Shown here one piece after another: positions 3,836 to 62,403 of a DNA stretch of 64,000 bases. The stretch comes from Octopus vulgaris (taxonomy: Eukaryota), in contig OX597815.1 in the NCBI GenBank assembly GCA_951406725.2, positions 37,634,001 to 37,698,000 of the forward strand, read 5' to 3'. The position numbers and the translations under genes are program-made. Position 1 is the stretch's first letter; each line of letters begins with the position of its first letter. The notes beneath the pieces were generated by a model. It was not told the origin of the DNA. It was given only the letters and a program-made list of their open reading frames with translations, and made no database searches.

Positions 3836-4469
3836 CTGATGGTGTTTCAGTACAGAAAGGAGATGCGCCTTTCCCCAAATTTCCAAATGAAACTAATAGC
3901 ATGCGCTGCTCAGGCGGTAAAGTAAGATTGCTAGCATTATAGCTCCTCCGCAACATCTTATAGATCTTCTGGAAGGTACTTCCATCCAGTGAAAGGATTC
4001 TCCGAACAATATCAGATAATATAACTCTGCATTTCAAATTATATCCTTTGTTGTTTCTAAGGAGATAGTTGATTATGGATTTACGCCAACGTTCAAAGTT
4101 CAAGGGCGAGTCATTTCTTCCATGTTACCCACAAATGAACAACCACTGTTCCTCCAAATTTTCTTCGTGAGTGATGTAGACAACAAAACGGATGTAGGTG
4201 TCAATACATCAGATGATGGGTCGTGTTAGACGCAGCACCGACTACCACAAAGGAGAGTATATCCACTGACAGTTTTTTGGTGGGTTCAAAAATCACATGC
4301 ACCCACCTCCCAATTTCCATGACAGGTTAGGACCTGGAATACTCCAAACAGAGGTATGACATGACGCTTAGTCGAAATAGCCCATCATTTACTCAACAAA
4401 TGTTTTCTCAATGCTGCACTTTCCCGTATCACCTTTTTCAACATAACTGTAATATATATATACAAACTA

Positions 4470-5258
4470 GGGCGGCGAGCTGGCAGAAACGTTACCACGC
4501 CGGGCGAAATGCTTAGCGGTCTTTCTTCTGCCGCTATGTTCTGAGTTCAAATTCCGCCGAGGTCGACTTTGCCTTTCATCCTTTCGCGGTCGATTAAATA
4601 AGTACCACTTACGCACTGGGGTCGATGTAATCAACTTATTCCTTTTGTCTGTCCTTGTTTGTCCTCTCTGTGTTTAGCCCCTCGTGGGTAGTAAAGAAAT
4701 AGGTATTTCTTCTGCCGCTACGTTTTGAGTTCAAATCCCGCCGAGGTCGACTTTGCCTTTCATCCTTTCGGGGTCGATTAAATAAGTACCAGTTACGCAC
4801 CGGTGTCGATATAATCGACTTAATCCGTTTGTATGTCCTTGTTTGTCCTCTCTATGTTTAGCCCCTTGTGGGTAGTAAAGAAATAGGTATTTCGTCTGCT
4901 GTTACGTTCTGAGTTCAAATTCTGCCGAGGTCGACTTTGCCTTTCATTCTTTCGGGGTCGATAAATTAAGTACCATTTGCACACTGGGGTCGATGTAATC
5001 CTTTGTCAGTCCTAGTTTTCCCCCTCTCTGTTTATCCCCTTGTGGGCAATAAAGAAATAAGAAACGTTAGCACGCCGGGTGAAATGCTTTGCGGTATTTC
5101 GTCTATCTCTATGTTCTGAGTTCAAATTCCGCCGAGGTCGACTCTTTCTTTCAGCTTTTGGGGGTCGATAAACTAAGTACCAATTGCGTACTGGGATCGA
5201 TGTAATTGACTGGCCCCCTCCCCCAAAATTTCGAGCCTTGTGCCTAGAGTAGAAAAGA
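4470..5258 (+). mobile_element. Tetrameric tRNA-derived SINE (type A; octopus OR-like, Nin/Deu-like core)
   Basis: Four copies of the core GTTCTGAGTTCAAATTCCGCCGAGGTCGACTTTGCCTTTCATCCTTTCGGGGTCGAT, flanked by the direct repeat TATACAAACTA. Confidence 0.9.
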
Positions 5259-12423: not shown

Positions 12424-12843
12424 GGCGCAGGAGTGGCTGTTTGGTAAGTAGCTTGCTAACCAACCACATGGTTCCGGGTTCAGTCCCACTGCGTGGCATC
12501 TTGGGCAAGTGTCTTCTGCTATAGCCCCGGGCCGACCAATGCCTTGTGAGTGGATTTGGTAGATGGAAACTGAAAGAAGCCTGTCGTATATATGTATATA
12601 TATATATAAGTGTGTGTGAATATGTTTGTGTGTCTGTGTTCGTTTCCCTAGCATTGCTTGACAACCGATGCTGGTGTGTTTACGTCCCCGTCACTTAGCG
12701 GTTCGGCAAAAGAGACTGATAGAATAAGTACTGGGCTTACAAAGAATAAGTCCCGGGGTCGATTTGCTCGACTAAAGGCGGTGCTCCAGCATGGCCGCAG
12801 TCAAATGACTGAAACAAGTAAAAAGAGTAAAAAAAAAAAAAAA
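12424..12843 (+). mobile_element. tRNA-derived SINE type B (octopus OK/OR-like) with internal microsatellite
   Basis: Head GGCGCAGGAGTGGCTG..GGTTCCGGGTTCAGTCCC and tail ATGACTGAAACAAGTAAAAAGAG; many copies in the window. Confidence 0.9.
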
Positions 12844-13849
12844 TATGAGAATGGCATAACAGGTAAACGTATGACTATAACATATTATAGATTTTACCCT
12901 ACCGCGTATCTTAGGCTCTTACCTTTTAAATTAATGTTGCTCATATCATAAATTGTATTTTTCACAAGATTGTTTTTCAAATATATATCTTAAATACAAT
13001 TAACGTTTAAAGTATTTTATTTAACCTTGGAGTGTGTTGTATGTGTGATCGTTATAGGTTAACTTTTATACACAAGTTTAGAAAATATCTCAAGGAAAAT
13101 GAATTTCTAATTGCTATGATAAAACCTTAATATCTGAGTTTATAGCTTTTTATGACAAGTATTAAATATGTCAGTTATAGTAGAACTTCTTGATGTGCGA
13201 GTTTATAACCTTGTTTTGTAGTTTAAAAAGTTCGTAATTCTGGAATTAATCGATTGCTGAATCATTCAGTAGTTGGAGGCCTATTCAACGATTGATATTT
13301 GTTTGTGCTTAGATGATTTCCAGTTTCAGTATCATGACTACTCATAAATACATTTAAAATATTTTTCGATATTTCACGAAATACTAGCGCAATTTCTTCG
13401 CACAAAAAATTGAATACACCCCACCAATTTATTTGAATTAGTGAGTTGGTTTTCTTCAGCATCACGCTAATCTATACTAATCTTTAACACAATTTTCCGG
13501 AAAATTACAAACTATGACTTAAACTAATGGCTAGATAATTGGCTTAGCAGTAGGTAGTAAGAAAATATCTTTATAATGTTCAAATGTATAATAATGTAAT
13601 GAAGAATTAGAAATTGTAATAAAATGTTGATGTCAAGGTTAGTTCTTTTAAAATAATTTGTATCAATCTCATTTTCAGGAGCAAGGTTTTGATAAAACCG
13701 GTTCTCATATATTGCATACATCATCTAGGATGTTTTATTCGCAACCCAATGAAAAAAGAAATGTCTTCAATCTTCTCTGAAAAAGTGAACTATGAGCCAG
13801 ATTGTATATTATAAGATTAACGTCTGAAATTTTGGGTTAGGTGCAAGTC

Positions 13850-14008
13850 TATTAAATCAACCCCAGTGCTCAACTGGTAATTATTTTATCAACCCTAAAA
13901 GGAATGAAGCCAAAGTCTATCTCGGCGGAATTTTGAACGCAGAACACAGGAAGAAATGTAGCTAAGCATTTTGTGCGGTATGCTTAGGATTCTGCCATCT
14001 CATTGCCA
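13850..14008 (-). mobile_element. Diverged SINE type A
   Basis: Reverse-complement similarity to the 4470 and 15921 core. Confidence 0.75.
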
Positions 14009-15920: not shown

Positions 15921-16152
15921 AGGGCGGCGTGATTGCAGAAACGTTAGCGCGCCGGGCGAAATGTTTTCCAGTATTTCGTCTGCAGCTACGTTCTGAGTTC
16001 AAATTCCGCCGAGGTCGACTTTGCCTTTCATCCTTTCGGGGTCGATAAATTAAGTACCAGTTACGTACTGGGATCGACTTAATCGGCCTAATCTCTTTGT
16101 CTGTTCTTGTTTGTCCCCTCTGTGTTTAGCCCCTTGTGGGTAGTAAAGAGAT
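15921..16152 (+). mobile_element. SINE type A with 16-bp TSD
   Basis: TSD ATATATTCTCACA(C/T)GA at 15905-15920 and 16153-16168. Confidence 0.92.
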
Positions 16153-16955
16153 ATATATTCTCACATGATATATTTAAGGTTGGTAATTTCAATTAAAATT
16201 TTCTACCCCTTAGTTTTCAATGACTTGAAACGATGTCGTGATATCAGTCTGATGTATTTCTTCCTTTCCTCGATAAATCTGTACAAGATTCATTTACAGT
16301 TTATAGTGATGTTTAAATGTCAAAGTTTCGTTTGTAATTCTGTATGCCTTCTTATCGTACATATGATAAAAGGACGATTTGTCTAAAACGATTCTCATTA
16401 CTTCTAATATGCTGAACACTACATAAAAAGTATTCTAAATTTTGTTTTGGCTTGAAAAAGAAAATCACTGGATAATATTTTTTGATATGTAAAGTAGAAC
16501 ACAGCACGCATATCAGGCTTTGACATTAAACTATTTTGAAAGAGAAATGTCAATAAAAAAAAATGTTATATCGAATGTTTGATAAACACTGAACTCTCTG
16601 TAGTTTTGTCCACCACGCTGTAAATAAATAATATGGGAATGTGAAACTGATCATTATGAAAAAAAGAAAGAGAAAAAGATCATGGGACTCAAATGTGTTT
16701 TGTTCTGTTGCACTGCAAACATAAAATACATTAGAAAAGCACTGTCCAAAATTCAAACGCATTAGATACAACTGATTAGAAAAAGTGGAGCGGATGTATA
16801 TTTGTATGAAGCTAATTTGCGGTAATTGATGATTTATAGGTGTCAACAAACCACATCGGCATTCCAGTTAAGAAAAGTTGAATATTTTCATTATCTCTTA
16901 ATTTTCAAACTTAAATAATTTCGATTTTGTTAGACGGCAAATTAGAGACAATGTA

Positions 16956-22299: not shown

Positions 22300-22673
22300 A
22301 CTACTGAGGGGCTAAGAAAAACCTGGGTAGCAATTCTTACACTTAAAAAATGAAGTGGAACGATCGTCTCCAATGGTATAAATATTTTTGTTCATTTTGG
22401 CCTTAAGCCCATTATCATTCCTGGTACAAAATAAAAAAACGGTTACATGCTAGGGTCTGCAACTGATAGAGATATTAATGTAACCCATAATTTCTTTGTG
22501 GATGACCTCAATATTTATAAGAGTGGATGTGTGGTAAGTAGCTTGCTTACTTCCGGGTTCACTCGAACTGCTTGGCACCTTGGGCAAGTGTCTTCTACTA
22601 TAGCCTCGGGCCGACCAAAGCCTTGTGAGTGGATTTGGTAAACAAAAGCTGAAACAAGCCCGTCGTATATATG

Positions 22674-23689: not shown

Positions 23690-25400
23690 GGGATGCACTT
23701 CGACACTTGGTGGTTAAAAGATGTTTTCTGAATGGATATGATGCGACCTTGAAAGGAATTTTTGGATTGATGTTAATCCTCTGCCGCCTGGTTTCCGTTT
23801 TAGGTAGATATGGTCTACGTCACTGTTTATGTGGAAATTATGTTTGCTTGTTCGTATTTTTCGGTTTTTTTCATCAATGGCTCGGATCTCATCAAGCGGC
23901 CAATCAAGCAGCCCAAATGTCGATATGAGTACTGGCACTGCAAACACAATTTGGGCCACTGTTTTATTGAATGCAGAGAGGTCTGAGCTCCAAATTTTCT
24001 TTATTCGGCTGTAATATTCTATAGCGACACGTGTTTTGTTACAGGTGCCATTGTAAGATATGTTTTCATCCATTCCTAGATACCTGTAACATTTTTCGTC
24101 AGATATAGGAGGAACAGTCAAATCATTGATGGAGATGTTACTAGTCGGGTTTATAGTTTCCCCCTTGGCACAACTCTATAACAACATTTATCCTGACCAA
24201 ACTCCAACTCTACATCCTTTGAGAACGTAATTAGAGCAATGATCTTATTCATCTCATGCATATTTTTTGCCTAAAGTTTTAAGTCATCCACAAAAAACTG
24301 TGTAATTTTAGTATTTCTGTTTCCTTGTGAACCACTGAGATATCCTTCAGACTTCCTTAACATGAATGACAAGGGGTTTGCAGAAATCATAAACATCACA
24401 TTGAGGCTGTCCCTTTGGAATATGCTTTTGTTATACTGTATTCTATCAGTGATAATACAGCCACTCTTTGTGTTTAATTTCAAGATGGTGGCCCACGATG
24501 AAGTCTGGTCAGCTATGGCTTTGACTATGCTCACAGGAACTTTAGCAAGTTGAAAGACATCTAGCATCCATGAGTGCAGGCAGGGTTAAAGACTTTCTTG
24601 TAGGCTTTCCACATTGAAACTAGGTTCCGCATATGCTCTTGCACCTCTGACATCAGAGTTTTGCTGATTAAAATTGGCTCAGCACATCCCCAAGCTCCCT
24701 TTTCCCCAGCTGTTTGTTCTGCGGTGATGATGTCATTGGTTTCACAATGGTCCTTAAGGAAGAGGTTTAAACATACTGTATATATCTTATACATAAATTC
24801 TGGTATGCAATTGACCGGTAGATTTTTGCCATGTGTGTGGTTCTGCATTTGGGGATCAATTTTGTCTCTGCCAGAGCTACTGTTTCCAATGAGAGCTTGC
24901 TGGTACAGATTGATAAGGTATGGTCGGTAGAACGTGAGATTCTTGTACCAATATCCAATAATCAAGTCTCTTCCAGGTGCCTGCTATTTACCATAGTCGC
25001 AGTAGGGGGACAGTGGTCAGTTACTTGAGTCAGTAATGTAGTTTGGCTGGCAGGCACCATGGAATCTGTTGGAATGTCGCTAGCTGTGACACCACGTGGT
25101 GGTCTTGTATCATTCACGTTTTCGTTCTTGTTTATAGAATTGGGAAGAAGGTTAATTTTCGAATTCTTAAGAAAGTTACAGTTATTAAACTTCTTCCTAT
25201 GTATTAGAAATGTTGTCTGTTGGCGTAGCTGCTTCGCTGTAAAATGATATAATCCTGGATGCAGATTATTATATGGTTTCAGTCGATTCGTATAGCCAAC
25301 AGCGGGGTTTTCTTCCGCTTTATTGTAGCAATTAAATAGACCAGTATTTAATTCATAATTCCAAGGGAAATGAGTTTTTTGTAATTACAGTTTCTTCTAT
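23690..25400 (-). mobile_element. R4/Dong-clade non-LTR retrotransposon relic
   Basis: IITAEQTAGEKGAWGC, AYKKVFN, IFQRDSL, FFVDDLKL, YRYLGMDE and IWSSDLSAFNKTVA..FAVPVL..FGLLDW in RT order, with frameshifts. Confidence 0.88.
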
Positions 25401-34257: not shown

Positions 34258-34399
34258 GCATGTATATATGTGCATATATATGTGTACATATTACATGTAC
34301 ATCTATATATATACATCTACACATAAAATACAAAATACAAAGTTATATTTTGATATCGCTAGTGATAACAATACTCAAAATATATAACAGACTGGAATT

Positions 34400-35185
34400 G
34401 TAGGTCCGTCTCTTGCGATTTCGATCAATTGGATCTTGTCCTCCCTCTTGTATAGAAGTGTGTTTACAATCCAGCCTAGCACTACTTCTGGGGGGACATT
34501 TTAAATTTTTTATCCGGGACGTCCTACGTCCCAGATATAAAGGTAAAAATAATATATTTCCACTTTGCAAGGTTCGAGTCGAGTACTCCCTTGCACGCTC
34601 CGTTGACTCGAACTTTGCTTCTATTGTGGCGAATTTACCGCCTCTGGTTAGATACTTGATATATTTCATAGTCGCACCAAGACACTTTTCAATGGTGCTT
34701 TCGTCCATGTGTTCAAATAGTATCCTATATTCACCGTTTTTGTCGGTGATCAATCCGAAATAGGTTTGTATTTCTTCCATTTTAATTTTAATGAGTTCGC
34801 GCCCGCCGACGGCTGCAGCGAAATTCAGTTTTGGACTTCTTCTATCAAAGACAATTTAACAAAAATACTTCCGTACAAACGGTGAAAATATTGTCAATTT
34901 CCCCAAACAGGGACACAATTCAATTTCTAAACAATAACCAAAGCTCCTTCTCCCAAAGGGGGAGGGTTATGGTTTACAATTATTTAACAAATGCAACACA
35001 ACAACGCTTGCCTTACGAGGAACCAACAAACGTGATAACAATAGTTAAACAGTAATAATAATAACAACAAACCTTACGGTGAATCAAAAAGCAGTACTCA
35101 GTTGAAGCTATAGTTCTTTATGGATTAGAAATAAACCAACAGCAGTACTCAGTAGAAGCGTCTGTTCGAGACAACAGACATTACA
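34400..35185 (-). mobile_element. 5' UTR plus truncated ORF1-like sequence of an L1/Tx1-type element
   Basis: IKYLTRGGKFATIEAKFESTERAREY..ILFLPLYLGRR aligns by eye with LKYISRVKHATVWLLFDNEEKARQF..ILFLPSYCGRK of ORF 60537. Confidence 0.7.
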
Positions 35186-41544: not shown

Positions 41545-42770
41545 TGAAAGAGCTGCTCAACCATTCAAATTTGGAAGTGATATATCCCGACTTTGCAAAG
41601 GCCTTTAATAAAGTCGATCATGGAATGATATGTCCCAAACTGCGTGATCTCGGCATAGTTGGAAAATTGGGAGAATGACTTCATGACTTTCTGAAGGATA
41701 GAAATCAGATGGTAGTAGCCAATGGGACCACCTCCAATGACACGCAAATAGTGAGCGGTATTCCGCAAGGCACTCTTTTGGGATCACTAAAATGCAAGGC
41801 ACTGTTTTGGGACCACATAATGGCCCTATCAGACATGCCCTTAGCCACACAGAGAGCCACGATCCCAAGTTATGCAGATGATACAAAAGTCTCACAGGTA
41901 ATACAGAACCCTGAAGACACTATGCACCTGCAATGTGAGCTGGATGAAATATACAAGTGGGCTGAAAAGAATAGCATGCAGTTTAATGCTGAAAAGTTTC
42001 AAGCATTGTGCTATCAGCATGCAAAACTAAGAGCAATACCCATTAAATACACTGGACCTGGAGGAATTGCAATCCCAGAGGCACAGTCAGTGCGAGACCT
42101 GGGTATTTTCATAGTAATGTGCATCCTTTCATGTGCATGTTGCTAAATTAGCAATGAAATGCAGGCGGCTGACCTGATGGATCCTTAGAACTCTTAGAAC
42201 AAGAGATCAGGAAACCATGATGGTCCTCTAGAGAACACTTGTCCGAAGCCACTTACACTATTTCTCTCAGCTATGGTCACCAACCAGCGTCAAATTAATC
42301 TCAGAATTTGAGGCAATCCAACGAAGCTATACGATGTAGATAGCCTCTATGCAGCATTGGGAAAAACTCAAGAGATTAAGACTCTATTCCTTAGAGTAGG
42401 CGAGAAAGTTATGCCATAATATAGATCTGGATGATTCTGGAAGGAATTGTCCCAAACTTTGGCATGGAGAGTTACACAAATACTAGAACTGGGCGCCACT
42501 GCATTGTGCCAAGGATTCCAAATTTTCCACAAGATGTAGGACAAGATACTGCAATAGCCTGGGCTTCAGCGGTCCACTGATCTTCAATATCCTCCAGAAG
42601 AACCTGAGAGACCTGCCTGGGGTGGATGTAGGTGTCTTCAAACTAAAGCTGGATCTTCTTGTCAAGTGTCACAGATGAACTAACTTCGCAGCAGGAGGTG
42701 CATATGAGGGAAGCTGCATCAAATTCTCTTATGCACCAAATGTCAATTCCTAAAAAGCATTCGTGAAGTA
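41545..42770 (+). mobile_element. CR1-group LINE, RT domain and 3' end (pseudogene)
   Basis: YPDFAKAFNKVDH, SGIPQGTLLG, YADDTK, MQFNAEKF and VRDLG; stops and frameshifts. Confidence 0.92.
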
Positions 42771-45582: not shown

Positions 45583-46111
45583 TGTGTGTGTGAGTGTGTT
45601 TCTTGAGTATTTTCAATTAAGACCACGGAAAGAAAACGTTTCAGGTCAAAGGATATAATGCATAGTTGTAGGGGGTTTTATTAAATTTTCTAAGAATACT
45701 TCTCTCCAAAACGCAATTTTACTTACAGTCCTCATTATTATTAATGAAGCAATTTGTGTTTTTACTGTTTTAGTGCTTGGGGATCCAAATCTGAAGTAAG
45801 CGTTAGCTGAACTTAATTAATAACAGAACAAAACACCTTTGTTAATAATGATCAGGGATAAAGAGTAGTCGAAGAATAATTGCAATGAATGTTAAACGAA
45901 AATGCTGGTAATAATGGCCTTAAGAATATTCATATAACAAAAAATATCCGCTATAGAGTAACGTAACAGATTATAAGGTTACATGGACAATAAGAAGTAA
46001 TAAATGGGAAATGGTATAATTTGCATATACGTTAGATAATACGTAGATACGAGAATTAGAATAAGCTGTCATAAGTAAGGAATTAGTGATAAAAAGGTAA
46101 TGCAAACATTT

Positions 46112-46343
46112 AAGGCGGCGAGCTGGCAGCAACTTTAGCACGCCGGGCGAAATGCGTAGCCGTATTTTGTCTGCCGTTACGTTCTGAGTTCAAATTCCGC
46201 TGAGGGCAACTTTGCTTTTTATCCTTTCGGGGTCGATAAATTAAGTACCAGTTACGCACTGGGGTCGATATAATCGACTTAATCCGTCTGTATGCCCTTG
46301 TTTGTCTCCTATGTGTTTAGCCCCTTGTGGGTAGTAAAGAAAT
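46112..46343 (+). mobile_element. SINE type A with perfect 17-bp TSD
   Basis: AGGTAATGCAAACATTT at 46095-46111 and 46344-46360. Confidence 0.95.
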
Positions 46344-47315
46344 AGGTAATGCAAACATTTGTAAATACAGTAGGAGGAGAAAATATACGTAGGTAGAATA
46401 GGAAAGTGAATTTAACCGTCATCTTTATAATAAATCAGTCTATTTGAGGGTCTTGTGTGTTTAACGTCTTAAAATTCGATGCATGTATGATAAAAAAAAA
46501 TTCGGAATGTTTTCCCAGAAGAAAAGTCTTATCAAAGAGCAGTCCTAGAGGCCGAATGGTTCTTCATATAAGTGCAATTTTAATTTCATTCTGATTTTCA
46601 ACTCACGTCGGTGTGTGTAGAGATATATATTTTAGTTCCCACGCATACATAGCTAACGAAGCCTGGTTAGATGTCTTATAGTTTTTGAAGTTGTGGGTAT
46701 AAGTTTAAAATACATCATTGTTATTCCAGTGTTGACTTGTTCATGCAGGCATTGCATTAATGGAGAATGTCCATCGATAAATATTCTGAGTCCACGAGAA
46801 TTAGACAACGTTGTGGCAGATCTATTAATTATTGAAACCGGCGTGCCTGCTATTTGTTTAGGCTAGAGTTACTAGAATTGGCTGTTCTCGAAAATATTCA
46901 AGTGTTTGAACAGAATGAGATTTAATTTTTAAATGACAATGCAAATAAGAATATTAGACTTGATTTAATTGTATAATAATTGTTTCTGTATTCATTAACT
47001 AATTGTTTACTTAAGAATTTTCGTACATATTTGTGAATTAAATTAAACATTCTATATAATTACAAAACTAATATATTTTTTCTTGATATACTTCTTTTCT
47101 TACGTAGTCATCTTCGACCACAGTGAGGCCTTTTGTCTTGCTCTTCCCCAATCTGCTTAAACGCTACGATTTGTTTTATTCTTTCTGGCAACGGTTCATA
47201 TTCCCCCTTTTGATTCTGTTTCATTTCAGTCCCCATCATACTTGTACGAAGAATTACTGACCAACTGACTGGCCATACCTCAAGTGAATTTTTCCACCGT
47301 AGTTCCAAACCTCTA

Positions 47316-54699: not shown

Positions 54700-55005
54700 A
54701 AGTCAAGTTTTGTTTATGGTCCATTCAAGTAGTGAGTTTTTGTTGGGTGAGTTGTATCCAATTGAAGGAATCTATCCAGACTCCGTTTAAAGTTGATGGG
54801 ATCCTGTTCCTCATTGATCTCTTTCGGGACAATGTTAAATATGGTAGGGCCTGTTGAGGAAAAGAAATTATGTTGTAGTGTACATGTATGCAGTGATCTT
54901 GAATTGGGCAGGGGACGTATGGCCCGTGGTCCCAGTCTTGAATGAACCTTGAAACTAATGTTCAGGTCGTTTGGGCAAAGTTCGCGGTATATTCTCCACA
55001 TCGTA
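54700..55005 (-). mobile_element. CR1-group LINE 3' fragment
   Basis: NFFSSTGPTIFNIVPKEI..FKRSLDRFL parallels the C-terminus at ~42560-42660. Confidence 0.75.
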
Positions 55006-55050
55006 CAAATATATATATATAAAGCCCAAACGTGTTTATTTGCATCACTA

Positions 55051-55106
<56 letters not shown>

Positions 55107-56999
55107 TGGTTCGTGTGTGAATAAATAAATGTACGACTGCAAATGTTAAGTGTAGTTCTACTTCTTTAAGCCAAAACGAGAAGTAATAAAAAATGATATT
55201 CGAGGCAACAACGGACCTCTACATGGTGGCTCAGTATGATAAAATATCAATCTGATCCATCTCAAGTTAGGTCACGCCAGCTTAAATCCTCCCCGTCAAA
55301 ACAAAGAGACATTGGACAATATAATCTTAGATAATCAAGGACTGAAAACTAGACGTTTGGAACGCTTTTGTTGATAGATCTACACTGTCATGCTTGAACG
55401 GGGTTAAATAACACGAGCGACAAAATTATAGATTGTGGATCGTATAGGATGAAGATTGACTTTTATGTCTTTGTGGTTAACCAAATGATAAAGTAACAGC
55501 TGATTCAGTCGATTTTACAATTTACCTCAGCATATATCGACCTCTGACGAACGTCTATTCTTTGGTACATATTAGATGATAATATTGCAAGTAACATCTG
55601 TTATATATCTAATTGCCTTTGTGAACGTTTTTGGCGTATTTTTTCAGTTAACCGCATTTACTCAAAGATATCTCTTTAACTTTGTGTTGAACTGTTATTC
55701 AGCCTTGTGTTACAAATTTACAGCCAGATAAAAAAACTAGAGTGGGAGTCATGCGCATGTGTATGTGAAAGATATTGCAAAAACTCAATCTTTTCGCCAT
55801 TAAACACTAAAGCTATTTTCGTGTCATGTTAATCTAATCATTACTTGATTATTGGCAATCTATTATTCCATACGTTTTCATTGTTCAAGATTGGCTTTCC
55901 CTGTGAGCAATGTTACATATTTATTCCGAACAAGTAATCTCGATCATAGCTTGTTCATTGATGCATTTGTGAATAAGCAGAGATATTTTATACTTAGTCA
56001 TACATCCATAAATTCTCCAATACCTATGGAAACAATACTTTACCACCCGCAGCAATCAATTAAATCATGTTATGCATAAAGTATAGCTATGCAATATTTA
56101 GTGCGTCATTTATTATTTAGTCCATTATTTAGTATCCGATTAAGTATAGGAAATTTTATTGGATGTATCGTGTCTAACGTGTTCTTTTTCAACATTGTTA
56201 GTGGTATAGTTAAATTGAATGGCTTCACCTTATAGTACAAACTAGAGAACAGACTTGACTCGGATAGAATATACCTTGTGTTATAACAGTAATTTTAGAC
56301 AAAATCTTAAGTTAAGAACTGAAGTAAAAGAAGAGGTAGTGATTCAGAAGAATATATTGTGATGGAAGGGTTTCGTCTTTATCCTGGGTTAGTCATTCGA
56401 TTGATTTGTTCAGATGTCTGGAGGGAGTATTGTTTATGGAGCCATTAAGTTTGAGTAATGCTTCGCTGAAGGACTCAGGTAGCAATAAAATTCCCTCATA
56501 GCTTAAGCTGTACAGTTTTTGTCCTATTTTGGAGATTTTATAAAAGTGATTTTGAGGAGTATATGTTCAGCAAGCGTTATCACAATTAGAGTAGAATGAA
56601 ATTGTTTCAAATTCTTATAACTTTTGATGCATTTAGTTACTATATATATATATATATATATGTATGTATTTGTATATCTATTGCTTGATTTATATAAATG
56701 TTAATTACAAATATTTACTAGTATTTGGCATTTACTGTATTTTACATGTTATTCTTTTATCTAATTTCCGGAAATTGAGTTTCATTTGTGTTGTACCTAG
56801 AGTTGTCGTCATTCATTTAACATTGCTCTTAATTGTAATTCTTTTTACTCTTTCAGTGATTTCAGTCGTAGGACTGCAGCCATGCTGGAGTATCGCCTTA
56901 GTTTAGTTTCATTCACTTTTGTTGTCGCTTTATGACTAGACGTTAGTCTATGATTGAATTTGTAGCAACTGATCTCCCACGAGAGTATCCTTGAATATT

Positions 57000-59745: not shown

Positions 59746-59956
59746 GTGGGATAATGATAGCAATGGTGGATGATTGTGCACGGGGAAAATAGAAGCGGTT
59801 GGTATTGTGTTTTAAGTGTAGTATTTTTATATTGAAATTTCCTTTAATCTTGTGTACTACTATTGCTTTGTTGAAAGTTTATAGTGATTATATCTGTGAA
59901 AGTGATTCATGTCTTATTGAATTCTGCGGAAGTCTAACTTTGTGAAAATAGTTATA

Positions 59957-59993
59957 GGTGTAGGTGTGGCTGTGTGGTAAGTAGCTTGCTTAC
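59957..59993 (+). mobile_element. SINE type B 5' head (continues at 62007)
   Basis: GGTGTAGGTGTGGCTGTGTGGTAAGTAGCTTGCTTAC. Confidence 0.85.
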
Positions 59994-62006
59994 TTCCGGT
60001 TAACCAAAATGCAACACTAGTTGGTCTGGACTGTTACAGTGAGATGTGAGTTTCGGCTCCGTGAATAGAAAAAAAAGAACAAAAAGAAAAATTGTCAATT
60101 GTGGCTCGCTATAGCGAGCAAAATACTGGGTTCTCACCACCGTAACGGTGAATTGAGAATTTTTGCTTAAATATGCTTATTGTAAATTCTAGTGGACGTA
60201 TCTCGCCAGAAAAATAAGAATAAGCCATTTAGATTACCTTTTTGATTTACAAAGGATTCCCAGTCTGTGCTATTTGTGAGGTGTTTCTTTTACTTTTCCC
60301 TTCTTCTATTTTTCTTTCTTCCTTTCTAAATTCTTTCTTCATTCTTTTCATTACTTTAATTTCTGTTTCCTCCCCTCCTCTTTTATTTTGTTTTATTTTT
60401 ATTCGGTTTAATTTTTTGGCAGACTGTCTTTTGAACTACTTTTGAACTGTTTTTTGACATGGCAGAGAAGGAACTTAAAATGAAAAACTCTGTCTTAGAG
60501 TGGGAAATTAACCCGCCTAAGCAGTGATTAAAAGATATGGAGGAGAAGACGATGGTACTTAGAACTTATTCTATAGTTCTTAATTCCATCACCGTCTTCC
60601 CAAAACAAGTCATAAAAAATGAACTTAAAGAATATTTGTCCTCTTTAAAATATATATCCCGCGTCAAACATGCAACCGTATGGTTGCTGTTTGACAACGA
60701 GGAAAAGGCTCGCCAGTTTGTGAGTCAGCCTTTAGAAGGCAAGGAAATTCTGTTCCTTCCGTCATATTGTGGAAGAAAATTAATACGAGCCTGGATATGT
60801 GGATTGGATTGGAGATACCCTCCGACGGGGACTGGGGGATGGCGGGCCCAGGCTCTTAAATGTAAGGGTATTGCCGGCGGTCAATTGGGAAGGTTCAAAA
60901 GCGATGTTGACCCTGTGGACCCCATCGGCCGCAAAAGATCTGGTTATTCCAGATTTCTTGAAAAAGCTGGCTGCAGGTATCCTGTGATACATGAGGGACG
61001 TCCCCTCAAGTGCCACTCGTGCCTGCAGCCAGACCACATTAAAAGGAACTGCCCCCAGAACCATTGTAAGGTCCTGGAACAGTCACTAGATGCCACCTCC
61101 CCCACCCGGTCAAAGGGAGAGGTGGATGTGGTCGAGGAGGCTTCAGCCTTCTCAACTCAAAAAGGATTAAAAAGGAAGAAGGCGGGCAACAATAGTTGCC
61201 CGCCGAAGGAACCTAAGGCTTCGGGAGGCACGGGAGAGTCTCCGGACAAAGCGGAAGAGCTCCACTCTCCCGAAGTCAGGAAGAAAAGAAAAAAAAAAGA
61301 AGAAATAAGAACGGGTCATCTCAGCGGGGAGATGATGTGCCGTCTGCATGTCCCGAAGTTGTGCCACCCACGGTGGAAGAAACCACCCCCACCCTTAAAG
61401 ATGAGCAATTAATTATCTTTTTCTATAAGGGCGGGGAGGTGGAAAAAATAGTAGAAGGAGACAGTAGATATGCCCTTCACACGGGATCCCGAATGGCCTC
61501 CGCAGATAGCTGTGAAGGTCATAAGGTTTCCCTTGTGGGAAAGGCTTAAAGGATTTGAGGAGGAGTGTCGCATATGGCCGGGTGGCCCTTACACGACTTA
61601 CATGTCCTACATGAGTGAGGCATGGGAAATGGCGGGATACAGAAACTCAAGCGGCACTGAAAATAATGATGGATATATCGAAGAGTAGGAGGTGAAAGAC
61701 CCTCGTTATAGGGTTTGAAACCTCATCTTATTGTATTATTTGTAGTGGTTTATAACCTCAATTGTGTGTTTTAAAAGAAAAACATGTTAAGTAAGAGGTT
61801 TGGTGCCTCCTTCTTGTAAGAGGTTTGAAAACTCATATTGATTTTTCAAAAAAGAAAATATGTTTTCGAGAAAAATCCAGTCGGCGGGTGTTGGGTTTCG
61901 TCTCTCATTTATTCATTCTATTTCATTTTGATTCATTAATGTGTTTGTCCAGCCCGCAAAGCTACACACTCTTTGTACTGTCTATGATGACAAATTTTAT
62001 GAAATA
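59994..62006 (+). mobile_element. ORF1-only non-LTR-type element bounded by a 15-bp TSD
   Basis: AAGTAGCTTGCTTAC at 59979-59993 and 62007-62021; single gag-like ORF; no RT; ends ..GAAATA. Confidence 0.8.
60459..61688 (+). pseudogene. Gag-like ORF1 with CCHC zinc knuckle (disrupted)
   Basis: CHSCLQPDHIKRNC (CX2CX4HX4C); basic KRKK tracts; ATG 60459 is in frame with 60537 but separated by a TGA; probable frameshifts near 60800, 60960 and in the C-terminal part. Confidence 0.8.
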
Positions 62007-62403
62007 AAGTAGCTTGCTTACCAACCACATGGTTCCGGGTTCAGTCCCGCTACGTGGCACCTTGGCCAAGTTTCTTCTACTATAGCCTCGGCCGACCAAA
62101 GCCTTGTGAGTGGATTTGGTAGACAGAAACTGAAAGAAGCCCGTCGTATATATGTATATATGTATATGTGTGTGTGTGTATATGTTTGTATATCTGTGTT
62201 TGTCTCCCCCGCCCAACAACGCTTAACAACAGATGTTCGTGTGTTTACGTCCCTGTAACTTAGCGGTTCGGCAAAAGGGTTCAATAGAATAAGTACTAGG
62301 CTTACAAAGAATAAGTCCTGGGGTCTATTTGCTCGACTAAAGGCAGTGCCCCAGCATGGCCACAGTCAAATGACTGAAAGAAGTAAAAGAGTAAAGAGAG
62401 AGA
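62007..62403 (+). mobile_element. SINE type B, remainder
   Basis: Resumes exactly where the 59957 head stops. Confidence 0.9.

Follow-up and report, generated by a model that had tools for sequence, protein, structure and literature searches.

A SINE in the Octopus vulgaris genome is split by a 2-kb insertion

The window analyzed here, a 64,000-nucleotide stretch of the Octopus vulgaris genome, carries at least eight copies of one SINE, and one of these copies is interrupted. Its 5' head (59953–59978, + strand) aligns with the other heads and contains, at 59967–59977, an A-box-like motif. SINE contigs in public runs begin at 59952–59956. In the alignment, the interrupted SINE breaks off at 59993 and picks up again at 62007, in register with seven other copies. 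A repeat search places a perfect 15-bp direct repeat on both sides of the break, at 59979–59993 and 62007–62021 (both + strand), the two copies lying 2028 apart. The alignment also identifies the left copy as SINE sequence, and the 15-mer has five matches in the window at up to two mismatches, against a mean of 0.15 in shuffles. Because the two halves are in register and flanked by the duplication, we conclude, as the preliminary description had, that a 2013-bp insertion has split this SINE and duplicated its target site. No second copy of the insert is present within the window.

The remaining part of the host SINE (62022–62395, + strand) comprises a B-box-like motif at 62038–62048, the body, a (TA)n/(TG)n stretch and the 3' part. 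It matches the copy at 12446–12831 at 87%; measured against the majority letters of the other copies, the right SINE half carries 5 differences in 146 letters. On these motifs, both labeled by eye, the insertion appears to separate the A-box-like from the B-box-like element of the SINE. The description of this region as a tRNA head draws on the same two motifs; ARAGORN and Rfam returned nothing.

No poly(A) tail is found at the 3' end of the insert. Instead, an AATAAA motif (62003–62008) overlaps the duplication, making the 3' boundary ambiguous by 2 bases, so the duplication measures 13–15 bp. An earlier worry about the 5' boundary, raised by the SINE copy at 22536, proved unfounded: that copy lacks 11 bases, which 6 of 6 other aligned rows keep whole or nearly so, and then continues into SINE sequence rather than insert. 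It mimics the 5' junction of the element for 21 bases (22536–22556), and the loss of the 11 bases after the 15-mer could, speculatively, be a plain deletion or the microhomology-mediated scar of a lost insertion. The window also contains another dispersed repeat (4468–5232, 15921–16159, 46111–46348 and 13845–14001), with a tandem array of 184-bp period at 4518–5206.

The insert carries two UTRs and a broken ORF1

The insert opens with a 5' UTR of 465 bp (59994–60458, + strand; 34% GC), whose first bases may resemble the 5' termini of L1/Tx1 elements in fish. It contains two hairpins at 60104–60161, one of them a perfect 16-bp palindrome (z −3.3 for a hand-picked 81 nt). By the same measure the first 150 nt have no structure (0.41), the end of the 3' UTR is unstructured (0.54) and 61700–61849 is weakly structured (−1.97). 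The 3' UTR (61689–62006, + strand) extends for 318 bp beyond the last stop, and ends in the AATAAA motif. These lengths agree with the roughly 460 and 320 bp proposed initially.

Between the UTRs lies the core of an ORF1 (60459–61298, + strand) encoding two RRM-like domains, a CCHC knuckle (about 61008–61058) and a low-complexity basic tail. The frame starts at the ATG at 60459 and meets an in-frame TGA at codon 23 (60525–60527), where the nearest homolog has Trp. It is lost near 60806 and regained near 60965, the gap being readable in the neighboring frame, and it changes again near an A-run (61283–61298) and near 61445–61470. The 294-aa open frame that includes the knuckle at residues 161–177 is consequently a patchwork in which the middle ~50 codons are out of frame. 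Thus, of the single gag-like ORF with a CCHC knuckle that had been described, the knuckle is present (Pfam zf-CCHC, E 0.004, below the curated cut-off), but the ORF is not intact.

Downstream, 61299–61688 (+ strand) reads in two frames up to the last stop at 61686–61688 and likely encodes the C-terminus of ORF1, its coding status being judged from these frames. This stretch had no Pfam match, and the closest homolog, Octopus sinensis LOC115225585 (P0001), stops at the A-run. For the 77-aa C-terminal piece, none of three candidates was confirmed in the homolog search. A C-terminal match seen by eye was dropped, as a profile built from five homolog C-termini did not match the window pieces.

The element belongs to a multi-copy family

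Parts of the insert occur in 20 public runs from four organism labels and ten studies, each run holding at most 0.46 of the insert words; no RNA run is among those listed as containing it. For four of the runs, X1, X3, X8 and X15 (the last possibly RNA), we aligned the contigs to 59850–62036 at 80% likeness. All 27 insert bins were covered in each of the four, and family contigs span the 5' UTR in every one. Summed contig depth across these bins ranged from 4,334 to 196,046 in X1, against 69.5 in the unique flank, and from 2,979 to 154,016 in X3, against 49.7. Summed contig depth cannot be equated with copy number, but insert and flank differ by two to three orders of magnitude.

Depth increased toward the 3' end. 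The ratio of the median of the last nine bins to that of the first nine was 5.5 in X1, 6.2 in X3, 5.5 in X8 and 2.0 in X15. Depth and position were correlated in X1, X3 and X8 (Spearman 0.81–0.86, with neighboring bins not independent); the trend in X15 was not significant (Spearman 0.33). This rise fits 5' truncation of the copies. Separately, a depth peak at 61456–61528, the family's deepest bin and two to four times the neighboring bins in all four runs, perhaps marks a segment common to related families.

The copy in the window differs from the rest. At several sites its letter occurs in no X1 or X3 contig, indicating that these runs do not show the window's own copy, and it differs from eight X15 pieces at 66 of 1480 letters (about 4.5%). 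Most family contigs, in three runs, carry an extra base at 60965 (depth 3452 of 4096 in X3), so the frame break there is private to the window copy. The earlier suggestion that this copy keeps its own RNA-binding protein is not supported: with a broken ORF1 and about 4.5% divergence from family-like contigs, it is a dead copy. We saw no intact ORF1 of this subfamily, the nearest protein being 50% identical.

ORF1 relatives are octopod proteins with a type I architecture

Among 923 candidates, one close homolog of the window ORF1 was found, LOC115225585, at 50–51% identity. A search aided by this protein returned 47 clusters at E up to 0.001, and 7 of the 10 clusters looked up came from Octopus sinensis, O. 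vulgaris, O. bimaculoides or Argonauta. The window ORF1 core is also matched by the ORF1 profile. LOC115225585 and the 46 further clusters share the same RRM-RRM-CCHC core; identity is 50% between the window ORF1 and LOC115225585 and 22–36% to most of the other clusters. Unlike the window element, these proteins are annotated as uncharacterised host genes.

An AlphaFold2 model of LOC115225585 (32-row alignment; pLDDT 80.8) has two alpha/beta domains and the knuckle. Its top PDB matches are the tandem-RRM proteins SFPQ, NONO and hnRNP A1 (E about 1e-5), with a whole-chain TM of only 0.2–0.3. On this model, the intact O. sinensis relative is predicted to be a LINE type I ORF1, with two RRMs and a CCHC knuckle. 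An ORF1 with RRM and CCHC is of type I, which in non-mammalian animals is consistent with the Tx1 clade (PMC5203782). The ORF1 type expected of Tx1 is thus present, though type I is not exclusive to that clade. Transposase_22, the domain of type II ORF1p, had no match in the window frames, in LOC115225585 or in 18 homologs. Atlas matches for ORF1 were CCHC proteins and ZCCHC3-like RNA-binding domains (0.90–0.92), which we treat as a lead; the link between ZCCHC3 and Tx1 that they hint at found no confirmation in the passages of PMC10351740 covered.

We also considered an LTR retroelement or provirus and rejected it, as there are no terminal repeats beyond the 15-bp duplication, no capsid match was found and the fold is RRM-like. 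The nucleocapsid likeness of ORF1 is confined to the knuckle.

Three further observations concern ORF1-related sequences. At 34343–34855 (− strand; in another frame from 34500) lies another ORF1 fragment, a more distant member of this octopod family. It is 37% identical to LOC115225585 over 68 aa (profile E 8e-28), is frameshifted, ends before the knuckle and has no SINE head beside it. A related ORF1 cluster (P0005, P0048–P0050) is represented by four Logan contigs of 1849–1930 bases, the size of an ORF1-only element. Finally, the O. sinensis gene model P0015 joins the first 45 residues of ORF1 (64% identical) to an integrase core, probably by fusing two neighboring elements.

The family probably lacks ORF2

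As first described, the insert lacks an endonuclease and a reverse transcriptase. The three insert frame pieces scanned with Pfam gave no match to either, the region 61689–62006 holds several stops in each of the three forward frames, and four LINE-remnant-like ORFs from elsewhere in the window gave no significant tblastn match (best E 0.32).

This absence could reflect a single deletion. In that case the window would hold a deleted or prematurely ended copy of a two-ORF LINE, and the deep coverage would come from full-length LINEs sharing its ORF1. Among the best 32 of 87,511 pieces, however, all three that span the stop at 61688 with at least 31 letters on each side continue into the 3' UTR, without an ORF2: X8 record 30 (61474–61917; 63 differences in ~450), X8 record 31 and X3 record 24. 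They are 86–93% alike, come from two organism labels and represent copies other than the window's. Since such diverged contigs pass directly from the last stop to the 3' UTR, the ORF2-less form belongs to the family rather than to a one-off deletion. The 3' UTR bins are also among the deepest, and the 3' end of the element meets target sequence in other copies too.

Some observations would suit the two-ORF reading. X3 record 22 departs from the window sequence at 61529, leaving 98 letters unplaced, and ORF2 continuations could sit among loose ends beyond those listed; 61455–61688 has no proven homology to ORF1; and no autonomous partner sharing the 3' end or the ORF1 was seen in protein, contig or metagenome searches. 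In particular, no ORF1–ORF2 fusion protein of 1405–4010 aa appeared among 4998 candidates in what was a weak search, and the longest ORF1 match among the cluster representatives was 801 aa. In JGI metagenomes, a query with the homolog P0051 gave 201 pattern matches, none of them confirmed, and a 22-nt pattern from the 3' UTR gave no matches. On balance, we consider the two-ORF reading improbable and hold that the family is, with good confidence, ORF1-only. Together with the coverage by family contigs and the shared junctions, these results support the initial view of a complete element without ORF2, and they support multiple copies that have their ends in common.

Decayed LINE remnants do occur elsewhere in the window, at 41679–42146 (+), 23714–25384 (−) and 54714–55145 (−). 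The one at 41679 has an RVT_1 match (E 2.4e-06); the other two are RT-like by eye and have no Pfam match.

Other copies join the SINE at the same site

We then looked at where other copies of the element end. The contig listings are dominated by SINE sequence, and we worked with the best 24 of 1138 loose ends, the best 15 of 139 joints and the best 32 of 87,511 pieces. Two of these 32 extend past one of the element's ends, and both do so into SINE. At the 5' end, X15 record 9 carries 27 bases of SINE head from 59967 and continues into the element to 60403. It is the sole contig at 60003 in this run, and it does not represent the window's copy, because X15 shows the family-majority letter at nine of nine listed sites in 59994–60403. 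At the 3' end, X1 record 8 passes the boundary and reaches 62031, differing at 30 of 207 letters.

Two joints involve the same site. In X3, the joint 59989→61987 (depth 318) connects the SINE head and 12 letters to the last 20 bases of the element. In X1, the joint 62016→61799 (depth 704) has eight in-between letters that match 61792–61799, its left side falling outside the listing. This joint can be read as target sequence leading into a truncated element, an apparent tandem pair similar to the tandem insertions of SINEU-3 (PMC4494074). A caveat is the 12-bp internal repeat of the 3' UTR in the region of the joint. The 14 other joint rows listed were set aside as SINE copies lacking the insert that were read across the duplication. 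X3 records 18 and 19 and X1 record 5 have unplaced upstream letters and stop next to indels or to differences carried by the window copy alone; we counted them neither for nor against targeting. The tail-less junction recurs in X1 record 8 and in the X3 joint, and the tail-less end looks like a trait of the family.

Among the rows listed, junctions at the SINE site are thus seen in the window copy and in four records from other copies. For comparison, a non-LTR element has been called target-specific when more than 20% of its flanks fall in one target sequence (PMC4494074). The four further records at the same site point toward targeting of the SINE, which we take as likely.

A preference for a short motif could mimic SINE targeting. 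An ORF1-only family without true SINE specificity might favor a T/A step or a GTAAGT-like sequence, with the SINE matches being a displayed minority. For a TAA-preferring enzyme, at most 8 of the 3008 TAA triplets in the window are SINE sites, and with perhaps a thousand copies a few chance insertions into SINEs would be expected at that rate. A 6-bp motif found at the site has just 39 occurrences across the window, so that the chance level could be up to 8 in 39. SINEs, moreover, make up 11.6% of the O. vulgaris genome (PMC13282606). The four records come from the longest or best-supported rows listed, and pieces that continue into SINE are longer and hence favored among those listed. Against this, the one contig that X15 has at the 5' end bears the SINE head (1 of 1), both end-crossing pieces listed lie in SINE, and the same site is met by three different truncation points. 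We regard the absence of specificity as unlikely, and a preference of the element for one SINE site as reasonably probable.

Alternatively, a single old insertion into a SINE may have spread later as a SINE-plus-insert composite, retrotransposed or segmentally duplicated, with its junctions inherited. Other copies do show the same two junctions, tail-less as in the window, and copying from the SINE 3' end would likewise yield an excess of depth at the 3' side. Separate events, however, are needed for the apparent tandem and for the very short form attached to the SINE head (59989→61987), and splitting the A and B boxes should, we infer, end Pol III transcription of such a composite. We give this origin little credence.

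Relation to known retroelements and a proposed model for mobilization

Taken together, the locus is best explained, though by no means conclusively, as a dead full-length copy of a multi-copy ORF1-only family that is copied in trans by an autonomous LINE, probably of the Tx1 clade, and that likely prefers a SINE site. Both the clade and the trans-mobilization are only probable.

HAL1 is a non-autonomous LINE derivative that encodes only ORF1p (PMC5753468), and the octopus element resembles it in being ORF1-only, bounded by a target-site duplication and about 2 kb long. A LINE-type ORF1 (recognized through LOC115225585 and broken in the window copy), multiple copies, a target-site duplication and 5' truncation are further features of the HAL1-like architecture. 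In contrast, the octopus ORF1 is of the RRM-RRM-CCHC type I, whereas mammalian L1 has a type II ORF1 with coiled coil, RRM and CTD (PMC5203782); the element also resides in a mollusc, has no poly(A) tail and bears signs of a fixed target. Its ORF1 type sets it apart from HAL1 proper, and we treat the resemblance as one of analogy rather than membership.

Fixed targets are known for Tx1 elements: Tx1 inserts in Tx1D, the crocodilian Tx1-Mar and its passenger SINEU-3 in Mariner-N4_AMi, and Keno in U2 (PMC4494074). Besides the fixed site within another repeat, they show duplications of about 15 bp, tandem insertions that sandwich the duplication and non-autonomous passengers that share a target (PMC4494074), features that the octopus element has or likely has. 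However, its likely target is a SINE head rather than a DNA transposon or an snRNA gene. It also differs as a passenger in retaining ORF1. Membership in Tx1 is defined by RT phylogeny and an APE endonuclease, and for the octopus element, which lacks an RT, it is probable.

In Dictyostelium, TRE5-A.2 lacks ORF2, is moved in trans by TRE5-A.1 and targets Pol III genes (PMC5633606). It thus combines the missing ORF2, trans-mobilization and Pol III gene targeting (PMC5633606), a combination to which we liken the octopus element. TRE5-A, on the other hand, inserts upstream of tRNA genes, at a distance of about 50 nt, unlike the octopus element, which lies inside the internal promoter of the SINE, and the host of TRE5-A.2 belongs to another kingdom.

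The curated O. vulgaris library contains 80 L1-Tx1 consensus sequences, with 13 recently active families (PMC13282606). HAL1 or non-autonomous elements are not mentioned in the part of its supplement covered, nor is this family described in the covered passages of the octopus papers PMC13282606, PMC9115989 and PMC8967140. Our search of the open-access literature found no description of it.

Our model suggests the following course. Transcription of a master copy would start in its own 5' UTR or arrive as read-through out of the SINE head, and the transcript would yield ORF1p. The ORF2p of the partner would bind the 3' end of the element RNA, and its endonuclease would nick the T/A step immediately preceding 59979, on the bottom strand. 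Reverse transcription would be primed at the AATAAA end, where two target T's could pair with A's of the RNA; priming directly at this end would explain the missing tail. A second nick 13–15 bp away would produce the duplication, and incomplete copying would leave 5'-truncated copies. By separating the A and B boxes, the insertion would shut down the SINE copy that it occupies, and the target re-created at the 3' junction would make tandem insertions possible. The nicking and priming steps are those of established TPRT biology. Pairing with read-through target RNA, as known from other site-specific elements, may also underlie the tail-less junction.

Implications for retroelement biology

Most descriptions of ORF1-only LINE derivatives concern mammals and Dictyostelium. 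A young, abundant invertebrate family would allow a direct test of why such derivatives retain ORF1, through dN/dS among the masters and the requirement for ORF1 in cis. A half-LINE that homes in on one SINE site, as this one likely does, brings together in a new way two strategies that are each known on their own. The analysis also shows that a set of octopod gene models annotated as uncharacterised are retroelement ORF1s.

If the targeting is true, a fixed target in the SINE promoter would imply an uncharacterized sequence-specific endonuclease, and the element would disable members of a repeat class that accounts for roughly a tenth of the genome in octopus. A bolder reading, which we consider doubtful, is that the half-LINE family, abundant in several octopus species, is a dedicated parasite of the dominant SINE. 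It would insert at one nucleotide between the two promoter boxes, destroy the Pol III promoter, form tandem arrays by restoring its own target and prime tail-lessly under the guidance of read-through RNA, with ORF1p needed in cis for targeting. Should this hold, octopus genomes would harbor a three-level parasitism of LINE, half-LINE and SINE, and with it a natural SINE-silencing agent.
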